A DNA stretch of 64,000 bases from Gemmatimonadales bacterium (GTDB lineage Bacteria; Gemmatimonadota; Gemmatimonadetes; Gemmatimonadales; GWC2-71-9), in NCBI GenBank assembly GCA_033764135.1, contig JANRJE010000012.1:67290-131289 (forward strand). Direction: 5' to 3'. Position 1 is the first letter of the stretch, and each line of letters begins with the position of its first letter. The notes under the pieces are model-generated. The model was not told the origin of the DNA and searched no databases. It saw nothing but the letters and a program-made list of their open reading frames with translations. Positions 1-64,000 of the stretch are shown here, one piece after another. The position numbers and the translations under genes were made by a program.

Positions 1-465
1 TCGGCGCTTACCGCCGACCACCTCGTGCCCAAGGATCGCGACCCCGAGGCGATCGGTCACGGCGTGCCGATCACCTACGTGCCGGCCCGCAACACCATTT
101 TTCTGAGCTTCGCCCTGGCGGCCGTCGAAGTGCTGGAGGCCGACGACATCTTCATCGGCGTCAACGCCCTCGACTACTCCGGCTATCCCGATTGCCGACC
201 GGAGTTCATCGCCGCCTTCCAGGCAATGGCCCGGCTGGGGACCAGGCGCACCGCCCTCACCATCCACACTCCGCTGGCCGCGCTCACCAAGGCGGGCATC
301 GTGACTCTGGGCCTTGAGTTGGGAGTGGACTTCGGCCTGACCCTGACCTGCTACGACCCGAGTGCGGATGGCGCCGCCTGCGGCCGATGCGATGCCTGCC
401 AACTCCGCCTCAAGGGGTTCGCCGAGGCGGGGGTGAGGGACCCGGCCCCATACGAGGGACTGTAA
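1..465 (+). CDS. queC: 7-cyano-7-deazaguanine synthase QueC, C-terminal part (gene continues upstream of the window)
   Basis: The frame is open from position 1. Translation '...[45 protein letters not shown]...[20 protein letters not shown]' matches the QueC C-terminus with its zinc-binding Cys cluster. queE lies immediately downstream. Confidence 0.85.
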
Positions 466-546
466 AGAGAGAAAGAGAGAAGGAGAGAAAGAGAGAAAGG
501 GCGGCCCTCTCTTTCTCTCTTTCTCTCCTTCTCTCTTTCTCTCTTT
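466..546. repeat. Perfect ~34-bp-arm GA/TC inverted repeat (AGAGAGAAAGAGAGAAGGAGAGAAAGAGAGAAAG-GGCGGCC-CTTTCTCTCTTTCTCTCCTTCTCTCTTTCTCTCT) filling the queC-queE intercistronic gap
   Basis: The arms were read directly and are exact reverse complements around a GGCGGCC centre. The same GAGAGAAAG/CTTTCTCTC arm type recurs at 43677-43870. Confidence 0.9.
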
Positions 547-10138: not shown

Positions 10139-12910
<2,772 letters not shown>

Positions 12911-12916
<6 letters not shown>

Positions 12917-13049
12917 GTCGTAGGTCGTAGGTCGTAAGTCGTAAGTCGTAGGTCGTAGGTCGTAAAAGGCGAGAAAGGTCGCTTCCGAAAAGGAAGCCGA
13001 CCTTTCAGACCTATGACCTATGACCTACGACCTATGACCCTATGACCTT
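12911..13049. repeat. Composite palindromic element: (GTCGTAG/GTCGTAA)x8, a central hairpin AGGTCGCTTCCGAAAAGGAAGCGACCT, then (CCTATGA/CCTACGA)x5. It sits between the convergent acnA and sigma-factor genes
   Basis: Read directly. The heptamer tandem arms are inverse to each other around a 9-bp-stem hairpin. The element starts at the acnA stop codon. Confidence 0.9.
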
Positions 13050-31295: not shown

Positions 31296-31311
<16 letters not shown>

Positions 31312-31380
31312 GGGGTGAGGGGTGAGGGGTGAAAGGTGAAACGGGGTGTGGAGTTGCCCTCCGTTTCACCTTTCACCATT
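31296..31380. repeat. Palindromic element: (GGTGAGGG)x4-GGTGAAAGGTGAAACGG ... CCGTTTCACCTTTCACC between the convergent uup-like gene and the S8 protease gene
   Basis: Read directly. It starts inside the last codons of the ABC-F gene. The inverted GGTGAAA unit recurs at 36668, 38766, 58489, 60457 and 63810. Confidence 0.85.
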
Positions 31381-36648: not shown

Positions 36649-36786
36649 GGAAGGGGTGGACGGGGGTGAAAGGTAAAACGTGAAAGGGGGCGATATGGGA
36701 TGTTGGATGTTGGATGTTGGATGTTGGGGTTGGGGGACGTCGGGGCTGTTTCCAACGTCCAACGTCCAACGTCCAACGTCCAACAT
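36649..36786. repeat. Composite element in a divergent promoter region: GGTGAAAGGTAAAACGTGAAAGG, then (GGATGTTG)x4, spacer, then (CCAACGT)x4-CCAACATCC
   Basis: Read directly. Tandem heptamers with an inverse copy downstream. It sits between the divergent DUF885-like and NfeD genes. Confidence 0.85.
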
Positions 36787-36814
36787 CCCCCCGGCCCCTC
36801 GCCATCCCGGGCCG

Positions 36815-38725: not shown

Positions 38726-38900
38726 GGGGGGGGGATGAACGGGGCCGCCGCGAGGCGGCGGCGGGGTGAAAGGTGAAAGGGGCCGCCGCGAGGCGGCGGC
38801 GGGGTAAGGGGGGTGTTGAATATTGGCGCTTCCCCCGGTGCCAAACATCCAACATCCGATATCCAATATCCAACATCCACCATCCCAACCTGAGCCGCCG
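38726..38900. repeat. Composite element: duplicated hairpin unit GGGCCGCCGCGAGGCGGCGGCGGGGT(GAAAGGTGAAAG) x2, then (CAACATCC/GATATCC/AATATCC) heptamer run
   Basis: Read directly. Between the flotillin gene and the beta-propeller lipoprotein gene (same strand). Confidence 0.8.
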
Positions 38901-40004
38901 ATGTCCCTGCGCCACGCGATCCTCCTCCTGGCCCTGTCGGGCTGTGGCGCCGACAAGCGGCCCGCCTACACCATCGAGACTCTCCCGGGTGGTGTCGTCC
39001 ACGTGGTCAACCACGGGCCGAGCGGCTGGGCGGACACCCTGGGATGGAAGATCGTGCTGGAAGCCGAGCGGACCATTCCCGCCGACAGCGTCGGGGCGCT
39101 CAGCCGGCCGAACTACCCACACCAACTCGCCAATGGCGAGATCGTCGTCCTTGACCAGGGCGAGATGTTCGTGCAGCGATACGATGCCGACTTCAATCCC
39201 ATCGGTCAGTTCGGTCGGCGGGGAAGCGGTCCGGGAGAATTCGTCAACCCGGGTGTTCGCGGTATGGGCGACTCGATCGCGGTCGTCGAGGGGAGCCGTT
39301 CGGCTCTGGTCCTCCTGACCGGCGACGGCAGCTTCCTGTATGAAGCTCAGCTCCCCACTTTTACCGACTGGATCGGGCACCGCGACAAGAAAGGGCGCCT
39401 GCCGCTGCTGGGACGGTACGCCCCCAACAGCGAGGCCGGAGTGATGTGGTGGTCGATCGCCGAGCGGCGGGTGGTCGATTCGATCATCGGTCCTGCGGGA
39501 CCCGAGATGCGGATGTGGGAGTCATGCGCGTTCGTGATCCCCTATCAACCATCCCTGGGGCTGGTCCCGACACTCGACGGCAATGCCTGGTGGGGGGTGA
39601 GCGACGCCGATCGATTCATCCTGACCCGGACCGGCTCCGATACACTGCGCATTGTTGAAACACCCGACCGCCCAAGGTATCCGGTTCCGAGCCAGCGCAT
39701 CGACGAGGACCTCGACCCGGAACGGGGAATCGGCAAGTTCTGCCGCGACATGAAACGCAGCGACTTCCCCACCACGCTCCCGGCGTGGAACGGCCTGGAG
39801 ATCGATGGGGATGGTAATCTCTGGGTGCGCCGCCCTTCGGGATTCGATGTGTACGACCCGGACGGTCGGTGGCTCGGGGAGGTCCCACCTGCCTACAACA
39901 CCGATGACGGATGGCCCTACTGGAGCGGCGATGTGATCCTGACAGCCAAGCCGGAGGATGATGGCGGGATGACGCTGAGGCGGTATCGGATTCGGCGAGA
40001 TTGA
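38901..40004 (+). CDS. Beta-propeller lipoprotein (NHL/6-bladed-propeller-like). Paralog of 42011-43093
   Basis: ATG at 38901 gives 'MSLRHAILLLALSGCG', a lipobox. It shares the 'G(S/A)GPGEF' motif and overall pattern with the downstream paralog. The overlapping minus-strand ORF 38646-39380 is rejected. Confidence 0.7.
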   Translation: MSLRHAILLLALSGCGADKRPAYTIETLPGGVVHVVNHGPSGWADTLGWKIVLEAERTIPADSVGALSRPNYPHQLANGEIVVLDQGEMFVQRYDADFNPIGQFGRRGSGPGEFVNPGVRGMGDSIAVVEGSRSALVLLTGDGSFLYEAQLPTFTDWIGHRDKKGRLPLLGRYAPNSEAGVMWWSIAERRVVDSIIGPAGPEMRMWESCAFVIPYQPSLGLVPTLDGNAWWGVSDADRFILTRTGSDTLRIVETPDRPRYPVPSQRIDEDLDPERGIGKFCRDMKRSDFPTTLPAWNGLEIDGDGNLWVRRPSGFDVYDPDGRWLGEVPPAYNTDDGWPYWSGDVILTAKPEDDGGMTLRRYRIRRD

Positions 40005-40263
40005 TTGGTGGATGTTGGATGTTGGATTTTGGATGTTGGATTGGATGTTGGCTGCTCTAGGTGGTACGCCCCTCGTCCCGACCGGAGGGCCTGCGCTGAG
40101 CGGACGCGAAGCGAGGGACCTCGGCAGCCGCCCCCGCTCCGACCGGCCAACCTCCGATATCCAACCTCCAACATCCAACATCCAATATCCAACCTCCAAC
40201 CTCCAACCTCCAACCTCCAACATCCAAAATCCACCATCCACCTCCGCCATTATCTTCCCCCCC
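40005..40263. repeat. Large composite element: (GGATGTTG)-type tandem arm, the core CCCTCGTCCCGACCGGAGGGCC and a GC hairpin, then a (CAACCTC/CAACATC/CAATATC) x~12 tandem arm
   Basis: Read directly. The heptamer run 'ccaacctccgatatccaacctccaacatccaacatccaatatccaacctccaacctccaacctccaacctccaacatccaaaatcc' lies downstream. The core motif is shared with 43714 and 63861. Confidence 0.9.
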
Positions 40264-41940
<1,677 letters not shown>

Positions 41941-42000
41941 GTCGTAGGTCGTAGGTCGCAGGTCGTAGGACTCAGGTCACCGACACTCGATTGTGGTAGG
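41941..42000. repeat. (GTCGTAG)x4 tandem heptamer element, the same unit as at 12911
   Basis: 'gtcgtaggtcgtaggtcgcaggtcgtagg' begins at the ettA stop codon and is followed by the RBS AGGAGG of the next gene. Confidence 0.8.
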
Positions 42001-42010
42001 AGGGGATCAG

Positions 42011-43093
42011 GTGAAGGGCTCGTTGTGGCTCGCGATTGCCATTGGCTGCGCCGCATGCGGTGGGACTGAGTCGATTCCCTCCGATGGCCCTGCGCTGCTC
42101 GAGGCCTCGCTCGCGTTGGACCTGCCGATGGGTGACGACGATTCGGTGCTGGTCGGCTCGCTCCAGGACGCGACCCGCCTGAGCGATGGTCGTCTCGCCC
42201 TCCTCGACCTCGACCGCAAGGCCGTGGTCCTCCTGACGCCAGAGGGGAAGTTGCTCGGGGTTACAGGACGCGACGGCGCGGGCCCCGGAGAATTCCAGTC
42301 GCCGCTGTGGCTCGGGCGCTGCGTTGCGGATACTCTCTATGTCTGGGATCGCGGGTTGGATCGGGTATCGATCCTTTCGCCCGAGGGCGATCTGGTGCGC
42401 GAGTTCAGACCGGCGATCACCGCCCCGTTCCGGCCGGAGTGCCTTCCGGACGGTCGCTTCGTGACTTTGGACGCTCGCGCCGGTTCCAACTACTCTCGTG
42501 CCACCAGCACCAATGCCCCGCGAATCCACGGTGCGCTGGTGGTGATGTCACGCGCCGGCGATTCGCTGGCAGCCATCCCGGGGCTCGTGCTTGGTCAGTC
42601 GAAAACGATCGGCGAACTCGCCGACATGGCGGTGTTGTCCGATCGGGTAGTCATCGGCCTGAACTCCTCACCGGAGCTCTCGACCTACAGTCTGGAGGCC
42701 GCGTTGCTGGGCCGCGACACCGTGCCAGTGGTTCCTGAGGTCTGGAGCGACCAGCGGTATGAAGCGATGGTCACGCGACAGGCAGCCAGCACCGGAGGCG
42801 ACTCCACCATGCGCGCGATGATCCGCAAGATGATCATTGCAGAGGGAAAGTCGGCCGCAGCGCCGCTGTTCCAAACAATGCACGGTTCGCCCGACGGACT
42901 GGTGTGGTGGGTGACATCGCTCCCGGTGGACTCCGCGACCACGCTCGTTGGTTTCCGCGATGGAGCTCCGGTCTTTGAATTGGCGCTGCCGGCGGAGATC
43001 GAGCCGTTCGAGATCGGCACCGACTACCTGCTGGGTCGTCGTCTTGACCAGGAAGGCCTGGAGCATCTGGTGCTGTACCGATGGCAGCCATGA
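42011..43093 (+). CDS. Beta-propeller lipoprotein. Paralog of 38901-40004
   Basis: A GTG at 42011 with AGGAGG 7 nt upstream gives '(M)KGSLWLAIAIGCAACGG', a lipobox. Motif 'RDGAGPGEFQSP'. Confidence 0.7.
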   Translation: MKGSLWLAIAIGCAACGGTESIPSDGPALLEASLALDLPMGDDDSVLVGSLQDATRLSDGRLALLDLDRKAVVLLTPEGKLLGVTGRDGAGPGEFQSPLWLGRCVADTLYVWDRGLDRVSILSPEGDLVREFRPAITAPFRPECLPDGRFVTLDARAGSNYSRATSTNAPRIHGALVVMSRAGDSLAAIPGLVLGQSKTIGELADMAVLSDRVVIGLNSSPELSTYSLEAALLGRDTVPVVPEVWSDQRYEAMVTRQAASTGGDSTMRAMIRKMIIAEGKSAAAPLFQTMHGSPDGLVWWVTSLPVDSATTLVGFRDGAPVFELALPAEIEPFEIGTDYLLGRRLDQEGLEHLVLYRWQP

Positions 43094-43149: not shown

Positions 43150-43230
43150 CCGGGAACCCGGCCGGGGCATTGGCGCGTATGATGTAGTGGATGTTGGATG
43201 CTGGATGCTGGATGTTGGTGCAATGTGCGG
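43150..43230. repeat. (GGATGTTG/GGATGCTG)x4 tandem element upstream of copC
   Basis: 'gtagtggatgttggatgctggatgctggatgttggtg' was read directly. Confidence 0.8.
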
Positions 43231-43283: not shown

Positions 43284-43676
43284 ATGACCACCCTGCTCCG
43301 CCGTACCATGATTGCTGCCAGTCTCGCCGCGCTGGCGCTCGCCGCCGCTCCCCGCGCCGGTCAGGGCACCATGCTCCACCTCCGGCTGACCTCCTCGATT
43401 CCCGCCAAGGACAGCGTGATCAGCGCGGCGCCGACCTCACTGACGCTGACCTACTCGCAGCAGCCCAACCTCAAGCTCTCCAAGGTGACGCTCAAGAGTG
43501 CCACCGGCGATGTCGTGGCCACCGGCCAGATCGCCCTGGGCGGCACCGACTCGACCTCGCTGCTGGTGCCGGTGACGGGAATGATGTCGGCCGGCAGCTA
43601 CACCATCAGTTGGGTGACCGCGAGCGACGACGGGCACGCGATCAAGGGGACGATTCCGTTCACGCTGGCGCGGTAG
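43284..43676 (+). CDS. copC: CopC-domain periplasmic copper-binding protein
   Basis: ATG at 43284 with an RBS GAGGAA. A signal peptide, then 'MLHLRLTSSIPAKDSVISAAPTSLTLTYSQQ...SYTISWVTASDDGHAIKGTIPFTL', the CopC fold signature (H at the mature N-terminus, D-x-H). Confidence 0.8.
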   Translation: MTTLLRRTMIAASLAALALAAAPRAGQGTMLHLRLTSSIPAKDSVISAAPTSLTLTYSQQPNLKLSKVTLKSATGDVVATGQIALGGTDSTSLLVPVTGMMSAGSYTISWVTASDDGHAIKGTIPFTLAR

Positions 43677-43870
43677 AAAGAGAGAAGGAGAGAAAGAGAG
43701 AAAGAGAGAAAGGCCCTCGTCCCGACCGTAGGGAGGGACCCCGGCAAGTGCCACCACCCGGTGGTTGGACAGTCCAAGGTGGTGGGTAGTGCCGAGGTCC
43801 CTCGCGTCGCTCGGGACGAGGGAGTCCGCCCTCTCCTTCTCTCCTTCTCTCCTTTTCTCTTTCTCTCTTT
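43677..43870. repeat. A 194-bp nested palindromic element: GA-rich arm (GAGAGAAAG)n, the core CCCTCGTCCCGACCGTAGGGAGGGACC, internal hairpins, the inverse core CTCGGGACGAGGGAGTCC, then a TC-rich arm. It fills the copC/PCu(A)C convergent gap
   Basis: Read directly. The arms are the same type as at 466-546. The core is shared with 40069 and 63861. Confidence 0.9.
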
Positions 43871-58488: not shown

Positions 58489-58516
58489 GACATTGCTCCC
58501 GTTCACCGTTCACCGT
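58489..58516. repeat. (GTTCACC)x4 tandem heptamer, the reverse complement of the GGTGAAC/GGTGAAA unit
   Basis: 'gttcaccgttcaccgttcaccgttcacc' was read directly, upstream of the S15 peptidase gene. Confidence 0.85.
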
Positions 58517-58610
58517 TCACCGTTCACCCTGGCGTGGTAGCGGCGCGAGCAGTAGGCACGACTATATTTTCGCTCCGCCCCGCGCTCCCGCCCCAGCCCA
58601 TGAGACAACC

Positions 58611-60444: not shown

Positions 60445-60545
60445 ACGGGGGGGACAGGAAAAGGTGAAAGGTGAAAGGTGAAAGGGGGTCCAGTGACAGC
60501 ATCCCTTTCACGTTTCACCTTTCACCTCGGCGCCTGGGTTCACCC
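60445..60545. repeat. Palindromic element (GGTGAAAG)x3-GGG ... CCCTTTCACGTTTCACCTTTCACC between the convergent S15 peptidase and TPR-kinase genes
   Basis: Read directly. An inverted GGTGAAA triplet. Confidence 0.85.
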
Positions 60546-63718: not shown

Positions 63719-63904
63719 CCGAAATCCGATCTATGGGGTATCACCGAATATGGGGTGAGGGCGCGTGAGGGGAAAGGGGAAAGGGGGACGGGGGAAAGGG
63801 GGACAGGGGAAAGGTGAACGGGGCGTGAAAGGTGAAACGGGAAACGGGATACCGGAATTCCCCTCGTCCCGACCGCAGGGAGCAACTGTCTTTCGGCTGA
63901 GGTT
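63719..63904. repeat. Composite element: (GGGGAAAG/GGTGAAAG)-type repeats plus the core CCCTCGTCCCGACCGCAGGGAG, between the kinase start and an IS110 transposase fragment
   Basis: Read directly. The core motif is shared with 40069 and 43714. Confidence 0.8.
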
Positions 63905-64000
63905 ACGCGGGCGCCCATTCGGTATCGTGGGCGACCATGGCATTGAGGATCGTCAGCAGCTTCCGCATACAGGCGACCAGCGCCACCTTCTTGGGCTTGC
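63905..64000 (-). mobile_element. IS110-family transposase, C-terminal end (gene continues beyond the window)
   Basis: The minus-strand translation '...KPKKVALVACMRKLLTILNAMVAHDTEWAPA*' matches the conserved C-terminus of IS110/IS1111 transposases (KKVA[IL]VA.ARKLL.ILNAM). Confidence 0.7.

Follow-up and report, generated by a model that had tools for sequence, protein, structure and literature searches.

The closest described systems are the REPs and REPINs of Pseudomonas and E. coli with their RAYTs (PMC3116915, PMC3337134), which are short (~20-40 nt) extragenic imperfect palindromes with a 5' GTAG or GTGG beside the hairpin as RAYT guide. They occur either alone (singlets) or as two inverted copies around a short spacer (doublets), a genome has tens to hundreds of them, and the cognate RAYT is a single-copy Y1/HUH gene with repeats on its flanks. 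They are lineage-specific and strain-variable, show no target duplication and attract insertions of the IS110 family; one member, ISPpu9 (IS110/IS492 family), always enters REPs at the same position (PMC8450116). The CGTC-tagged REPs (Di Nocera et al., 2013, PMC3733652), such as Neisseria dRS3 and Rickettsia RPE, show CGTC, or TGTC/CCTC, at one end, a C-rich stem of 8-9 bp starting with A-T, T-A, a loop of 4-5 nt with a GC-G(N)A(A)-GC-like apex and a mostly inverted dimeric arrangement, and no dedicated transposase is known for them. REP dimers inside larger palindromes have been reported for other REP families (PMC3733652). At the level of structure, GCGNAGC or GNA mini-hairpins are extraordinarily stable in DNA (PMC13037366, PMC3201870), and heptanucleotide intergenic repeats are known from other bacteria, such as TAACTGA in Beggiatoaceae (PMC4679880 and the surveys cited there).

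The stretch of DNA analysed here (64,000 nucleotides, hereafter the window) shows a conserved core sequence at three sites, which we regard, with reasonable though not full confidence, as the 5' portion of a REP-type repeat unit of 26 nt belonging to a new family of REP/REPIN-like, non-autonomous repeats that are probably recognised as single-strand hairpins and serve as target of an IS110-family element. The repeat is of a known kind and is unrelated to the arms found around it. It shares with REPs and REPINs the short extragenic imperfect palindrome, the singlets and inverted doublets with a short spacer, the restriction to one lineage, the variability between strains, the lack of target duplication and the targeting by the IS110 family, but the units lack GTAG/GTGG, their 5' tail being CCCTC followed by GTCCC, they contain a tandem G.A step and a GNA triloop, and their host belongs to the Gemmatimonadota. 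With CGTC-tagged REPs it has in common an invariant CGTC near the 5' end (positions 5-8, in 13 of 13 variants), the C-rich stem, a similar apex, the prevalence of inverted dimers and the lack of a known dedicated transposase, whereas the stem here starts with G-C, T-A, C-G, the loop has 3 nt instead of 4-5, a pairing between the tag's GTC and the 3' GAC is predicted, and a tandem G.A step is present. Membership of the CGTC-REP family was rejected on the absent A-T stem start. A full-text search of the literature found no REPs described in Gemmatimonadota, a phylum to which a REP/REPIN-type family is added here.

Repeat units in the window and in related loci

The window has a G+C content of 66.6% and its proteins are nearest to those of Gemmatimonadales MAGs: EttA (40264-41940) shows 100% identity to one NCBI Gemmatimonadales MAG protein and 85-99% to many more. 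Across the whole window, CCCTCGTCCCGACCGNAGGG is found exact on the + strand at 40070-40089, 43714-43733 and 63861-63880 (sites 1, 2 and 3), and an inverse copy with three mismatches is located on the - strand at 43803-43822. In the dinucleotide-shuffled window 0.15 matches are expected, and none of 100 shuffles reached four. The original prediction of a 22-bp core shared by three sites is right as to the recurrence, but the length of 22 nt applies to sites 2 and 3 only, which are identical over it; 20 nt are common to all three, because CC replaces AG at site 1. The predicted inverse copy at site 2 exists too, but it had been placed at 43809-43826, one base off, and the whole 26-nt unit extends over 43797-43822. 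The covariance model R1, run over the window with filters off, found exactly four 26-nt units and no other match at E < 0.1 (Table 1).

Table 1. Repeat units, inserted sequences and flanking arrays in the 64-kb window
Feature	Position	Strand	Basis or remark
Site 1, REP-type unit, positions 1-19	40070..40088	+	sequence; alignment to L031
Site 1, 24-nt insertion in the unit (GCCTGCGCTGAGCGGACGCGAAGC)	40089..40112	+	sole gap in alignment to L031
Site 1, unit positions 20-26 (GAGGGAC)	40113..40119	+	sequence; alignment to L031
Site 1, G-rich heptamer array (TGGATGT)n, context only	40009..40051	.	TRF
Site 1, C-rich heptamer array (CCAACAT)n, context only	40147..40240	.	TRF; ends ~25 nt before EttA start codon
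Site 2, 26-nt REP-type unit, intact, left half of doublet (CCCTCGTCCCGA CCGTAGG GAGGGAC)	43714..43739	+	CM R1 46.1 bits, E = 1.6e-8
Site 2, doublet spacer, 57 nt (CCCGGCAAGTGCCACCACCCGG...)	43740..43796	.	GTGCCACC motif adjoining one unit recurs in other copies (alignment)
Site 2, 26-nt unit, intact, inverse, right half of doublet (CCCTCGTCCCGA GCGACGC GAGGGAC)	43797..43822	-	CM R1 44.5 bits, E = 3.7e-8
Site 2, purine-rich octamer array (AGAAAGAG)n, context, not repeat family	43675..43712	.	starts at CopC stop codon
Site 2, pyrimidine-rich octamer array (CTCTCCTT)n, context only	43831..43867	.	ends at stop codon of convergent LpqE-like gene
Site 3, truncated unit, positions 1-22 (CCCTCGTCCCGACCGCAGGGAG/)	63861..63882	+	CM 25.8 bits, last four positions replaced
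Site 3, IS110-family insertion sequence, 3' end, 118 nt	63883..64000	-	translation; tblastn; PF02371 relatives
Site 3, G-rich arrays (AGGGGAA, GAAACGG, GGTGAAA types), context only	63768..63857	.	between kinase start codon and truncated unit
Further array	464-546		
Further array	12909-13048		
Further array	31300-31380		
Further array	36698-36788		
Further array	38765-38885		
Further array	41938-41978		
Further array	43188-43218		
Further array	58499-58528		
Further array	60460-60527		

Outside the window, where the original prediction had proposed to look for the core, it is present in other Gemmatimonadales MAGs and in metagenome contigs. The exact core is found in the Gemmatimonadales/Gemmatimonadetes MAG loci L002, L003 and L008, in L006, and in four metagenome contigs (L012-L015); units are also found in L016, L022, L028 and L031. 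L002 contains at least eight units in 8 kb, with four doublets within 2.7 kb, and L003 and L008 contain one copy each. L006 (PHEO01000224.1), labelled Alphaproteobacteria bacterium HGW-11, shows a canonical unit like that of the window together with GGTGAAA and Gemmatimonadales-type arrays, and may be mis-binned Gemmatimonadales DNA. Seven of the 11 stretches obtained in the genome scan belong to unrelated taxa (Actinomycetes, Spirochaetaceae, Halobiforma, Sorangium and others) and do not show the 3' half of the unit; this is about the number given by chance, and they were treated as possible chance matches. Three of the seven (L004, L010 and L011) also share the next two bases (AGGGAG), are apparently non-coding and may be distant relatives of the unit. 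The scan of viral contigs with the extended core gave 0 matches. The density of units is four in the 64-kb window and, in the genome scan, one to two exact-pattern matches per representative genome.

Every copy from the window and the related loci was collected, and the resulting 26 non-redundant units represent 13 sequence variants. In these sequences the units are exclusively intergenic, non-coding and located in the middle of the intergenic region. Doublets are inverted pairs ~20-80 nt apart, of 72-130 nt in total, and are found in the window (43714-43822), in L002 (four), and in L012, L013, L014, L016, L022, L028 and L031. Singlets are found at sites 1 and 3 of the window, in L003 and L008, at L013 985 (L013b), at L016 9547 (site 2) and at L031 220-245.

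The unit hairpin and its probable recognition as single-stranded DNA

The consensus of the unit is CCCTC-GTCCC-GA-N-C-GNA-G-N'-GA-GGGAC (26 nt). Among the 13 variants only positions 13 (N), 16 (the N of the loop) and 19 (N') vary, and the rest are invariant. The pair 13:19 is GC in five variants, CG in four, AU in two and other (mismatch) in two, never G.U, and its covariation score was reached by one of 500 shuffles. In the nine complete doublets this within-unit pair is kept in both arms (8/9 in each; 0/500 shuffles), with three Watson-Crick types in each arm, whereas across the two arms the three variable positions are unpaired in 6/9, 5/9 and 6/9 doublets, no better than chance (299/500 shuffles). 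Since N and N' covary inside the unit and not between the arms, each unit's own small hairpin is what is conserved. The other stem pairs are uninformative for covariation because they are invariant, and the signal comes from the single pair that varies.

As a single strand, the unit is predicted to be able to fold into a hairpin with an outer GTCCC/GGGAC stem of 5 bp, then a tandem G.A/A.G step, an inner stem of 2 bp that starts with the covarying pair, and a GNA triloop, the loop having 4 nt in two variants. The GTCCC...GGGAC hairpin proposed in the original prediction corresponds to the outer stem, and the base pair that covaries is in the inner one. Its suggestion that the core is a conserved, structured element of a recognition type is supported. 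Nearest-neighbour DNA folding of single units is no better than that of shuffles (z = -1.3 to +0.3) and sometimes favours an alternative CCCTC/GAGGG stem over GTCCC/GGGAC; the model used has no bonus for GNA loops or sheared G.A. The full inverted doublet of site 2, 109 nt long and REPIN-like, folds as one long hairpin (RNA, -78.6 kcal/mol, z = -7.25; DNA, -43 kcal/mol, z = -6.9), and RNAalifold on the doublets also predicts a long hairpin, without covariation.

Several unit variants show a GCGAAGC, GCGGAGC or GCGCAGC apex like that of the d(GCGNAGC) mini-hairpin DNA, and other variants retain the C-GNA-G closing pair and loop. Here the motif is different in being located inside a longer, genomically repeated hairpin. 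The tandem G.A step and the GNA triloop, a stable mini-hairpin motif, argue for recognition in single-stranded DNA. Sister hairpin repeats with a GA-GCGAAGC-GA centre are located at L008 7686-7706, L028 5779-5800 and L008 ~1520-1600; their outer stems differ (ATCCT/AGGAT, CGCT/AGCG, ATCCC/GGGAT and CCCT/AGGG), and by their sequence they suggest a wider superfamily of units in Gemmatimonadota.

We infer that a trans-acting enzyme would recognise the hairpin while the DNA is single-stranded. The enzyme would most likely be an HUH/Y1 (RAYT-like) transposase whose gene is located elsewhere in the genome, and it would copy or move singlets and doublets without target duplication; units once settled would be transcribed as 3'-UTR hairpins, with roles in the transcript, and would act as homing sites for the IS110 element. 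Neither the tested ORFs of the window nor the Pfam tables of the related loci examined contained a Y1/HUH (RAYT) gene.

It is quite unlikely that the units are instead functional RNAs, that is, 3'-UTR stabilisers, terminator hairpins or small RNAs kept by selection on the transcript and not by mobility. Sites downstream of stop codons or between convergent genes, the strong RNA fold of the full doublet and the known roles of this kind in REPs (PMC8450116) agree with it, but the units take either orientation relative to their neighbour genes and, at site 3 and in L015, are located upstream of a gene, their allele state varies among conspecific strains, they are nested by self-insertion, and the covarying position shows no G.U pair. 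The Rfam check recommended in the original prediction found no matching family either: the whole window shows no match at gathering thresholds, and at E <= 10 the surroundings of the sites show sub-threshold miRNA-like hairpin matches only, none of them relevant. As a secondary role, a function in RNA is compatible with the REP-type reading.

Alleles and insertions at the three sites

The alleles of sites 1 and 2 were compared on syntenic contigs of strains with 96-99% EttA identity, and their turnover is rapid. Read from these alignments, units are shown to be gained, lost, inverted and nested into one another among closely related strains. Site 1 shows a 119-nt doublet in L016 and L031, a 74-nt doublet in L022 and an inverted, interrupted singlet in the window. 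When reverse-complemented, 40040-40160 can be aligned over its full length, including the flanks, with a single unit free of interruption at 170-290 of L031, a conspecific MAG; the two differ in the 24-nt insertion only. The insertion in the window unit contains a second GA-hairpin-GA module, CGCT-GA-GCGGACGC-GA-AGCG (40094-40113), and L028 shows a sister module, CGCT-GA-GCGAAGC-GA-AGCG. Nested insertions are located at one and the same position of the unit (G19/G20 ^ GAGGGAC) in window site 1 and in L002 E1.

Site 2 shows three alleles among strains with 99% EttA identity: an empty one in L031, where the two arrays abut at ...AGG/CCCTCTC..., the 109-nt doublet of the window, and a unit with a 3.5-kb cassette in L016-L020. 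This cassette (L016 9605-13046) contains genes encoding an Eco57I-like methylase/endonuclease and an XhoI-like endonuclease and two small genes; it is absent from the window and L031, and in L016 it has a unit on one side only. The right unit of the window with its flank is the reverse complement, a mirror image, of L016 9547-9580. Comparison of the filled site (window 43700-43840) with the empty one (L031 5072-5147) shows no target-site duplication, nor do the other copies. The empty allele could reflect loss instead of gain.

These alleles bear on whether the doublets could be MITEs derived by deletion from a DDE-type IS, with the 26-32-bp units as terminal inverted repeats moved by cut-and-paste, which we consider improbable. 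The doublets, of 72-130 nt, do show near-identical inverted ends around a variable interior and are present or absent between strains; however, single units are common (the seven listed above), the inverted ends are not accompanied by a target-site duplication when filled and empty site 2 are compared, and no locus examined holds an element with unit ends and a transposase. Moreover, the variable positions covary within the arm and not between the arms, which indicates selection on the hairpin and not on a duplex end. The MITE reading was rejected on the absence of target duplication.

Insertion of IS110-family elements of the ISPpu9/ISPpu10 type into REPs was reportedly described by Tobes and Pareja in 2006. 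At site 3 of the window the unit is, judging from the translated junction sequence, cut after position 22 by an IS110-family element. The C-terminus of its transposase, KPKKVALVACMRKLLTILNAMVAHDTEWAPA, is encoded at 63998-63906 and is followed by the stop codon and ~20 nt to the junction. Further hallmarks of the family, an N-terminal DEDD (RuvC-like) domain, the lack of terminal inverted repeats and a guide (bridge) RNA, would be located past position 64000. The assignment to IS110, by a C-terminal Transposase_20 domain (PF02371) in the element at 63883-64000, is based on 31 residues, matched with a query padded with generic consensus: its nearest relatives in the database are fragments of IS110 family transposases that carry PF02371, and the best of those listed match at about two-thirds or more of the 31 C-terminal residues. 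The padded-query search gave generic IS110 fragments only and no close relative. The kinase orthologue loci L028-L030 contain no IS and show a different upstream region, without an exact empty site for site 3. The arrangement is like the ISPpu9/ISPpu10-type insertion in that a DEDD/IS110-family element is located at a defined position in an extragenic REP unit (PMC8450116), but it differs in that one junction and the last 118 nt of the IS are all that is present here. We infer that the IS110 element may home sequence-specifically to the unit.

Integron attC sites are imperfect palindromes with conserved ends and are also IS110/IS1111 targets. It is nevertheless very unlikely that the doublets are attC-like recombination sites of an integron-like cassette capture, with the polar arrays marking the attachment locus. 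Such an arrangement would agree with L002, in which three small genes on one strand are interspersed with four doublets between (GAGAGAAAG)n and (CTCTCTTTC)n, and with L016-L020, in which the restriction-modification cassette adjoins a unit between the site-2 arms. Against it, the ends are CCCTCGTC ... GACGAGGG, without the R''/R' core sites (RYYYAAC ... GTTRRRY) and without a linked intI, no tyrosine recombinase is found in any related locus examined, most units are not beside cassettes, and the L016 cassette is flanked by a unit on one side only. The attC reading was rejected on the absence of the core sites.

Conspecific MAGs with empty, doublet and cassette alleles at one site favour a comparative study, which is also aided by the nested insertions at a fixed position and by an IS110 element that seemingly homes to the unit.

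Polar heptamer and octamer arrays

The arms of the three sites differ, as originally predicted, and are heptamer or octamer tandem arrays of three kinds. Such arrays are located in ~12 intergenic regions of the window, most of them (~nine sites) without core, and roughly half of the intergenic gaps of >= 50 bp carry them. Outside the window, arrays of many different repeat units are found in L012-L016, L022 and L025-L027; the last three are more distant relatives, with arrays of other units and no core. In turn, cores without arrays are found at L028 3120-3220, in L003, in L008 and in the inner copies of L002. The idea that the arms are satellites belonging to the core was abandoned in view of the core-less arrays in the window and in L025-L027; by this distribution, the arrays are a separate, lineage-wide class of polar microsatellites that is independent of the core. 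That a mobile core seeds simple-repeat expansion around itself, the other possibility raised in the original prediction, is extremely improbable: the core-bearing intergenic regions of the window and the pattern-found metagenome contigs all carry arrays, against only about half of the window gaps, but ~nine array sites of the window and the relatives L025-L027 have no core, the cores just listed have no arrays, and the empty site-2 allele of the conspecific L031, with both arms directly abutting and no core, contradicts it. A telomere-like or break-repair origin of the arms was dropped for the same reason as the seeding by the core: some arrays have no core beside them, and relatives that lack the core have arrays too.

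In all ~20 adjacent pairs (14 non-redundant sources) the arrays show the same polarity, with the G/purine-rich array to the left of its complementary C/pyrimidine-rich partner. Viewed on the coding strand, purine/G-rich arrays are located directly after stop codons and pyrimidine/C-rich arrays directly before start codons. As the arrays hug the gene ends, other intergenic content lies between them. The TAACTGA repeats of Beggiatoaceae are similar in being tandem heptamers, nearly all intergenic, near start or stop codons and variable in copy number (PMC4679880), whereas the Gemmatimonadales arrays use many units, inverted pairs and a fixed polarity. No published description of array polarity or pairing in Gemmatimonadota was found.

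Judging from copy numbers, the arrays behave like hypervariable microsatellites: (TAGGTCG)n shows 4.6 copies in the window (41938-41978) versus 17.6 in L016 (7651-7773), at 99% EttA identity, and the gap from CopC to the next gene measures 131, 147 or 155 nt among L016-L020, the octamer array being what varies. Since the arrays repeat one another in inverted or direct orientation, they would mediate inversion or deletion of the enclosed DNA, and in the alignments rearrangements seem to be mediated by arrays that share a repeat unit and are located in adjacent intergenic regions. In alignments of strains, centres are inverted or swapped between array-bearing intergenic regions. Compared with the window (38726-38897), L016 (1488-4619) has ~3 kb of additional DNA that separates Band_7 from the propeller gene. 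This segment comprises a 111-aa gene, two genes of unknown function and one for an ECF sigma factor; it has a CCAACAT-type array at either end, both in direct orientation, and thus suggests a deletion mediated by the arrays. In L002 (2204-4949), the complementary arrays are 2.7 kb apart and the three small genes between the four doublets, all on the minus strand, encode a 114-aa protein without Pfam match, a DUF5128-like beta-propeller and a DUF1801 protein, in a cassette-like layout.

A wider possibility, which we consider unlikely, is that polar arrays and hairpin units form a previously undescribed recombination or capture system in Gemmatimonadales intergenic DNA. The apex of the array palindrome would be an insertion hot spot for modules, doublets, IS110 elements and gene cassettes; single hairpin modules would enter other units at the fixed G^GAGGGAC site; examples of such cassettes would be the restriction-modification system of L016 and, in L002, the three small genes located among the four doublets; and the arrays would move such contents from one intergenic region to its neighbours through inversions and deletions. 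What is probably more surprising in these loci is the presence of polar microsatellite arrays around genes; these arrays are the most worth following, together with their apexes as possible insertion hot spots (L002, L016).

Other observations concern the surroundings of the arrays. Two paralogous lipoprotein-like genes of ~365 aa (window 38898-40004 and 41993-43093) flank EttA, and arrays bound each of them; the homologue in L002 gives a weak match to the DUF5128 6-bladed beta-propeller, and a similar gene is located between the L002 doublets. At 38740-38805 the window contains two copies of the GC-rich hairpin GGGGCCGCCGCGAGGCGGCGGCGGGG, with GGTGAAAGGTGAAA between them, just upstream of a solitary (AACATCC)n array. 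Strong G-quadruplex candidates are found at window 31300-31332 and 63768-63823, with (GGTGAGG)4-5 and GGGGAAAGGGGGAC repeats, and L028 shows at 10360-10470 a run of ~30 G opposite C runs.
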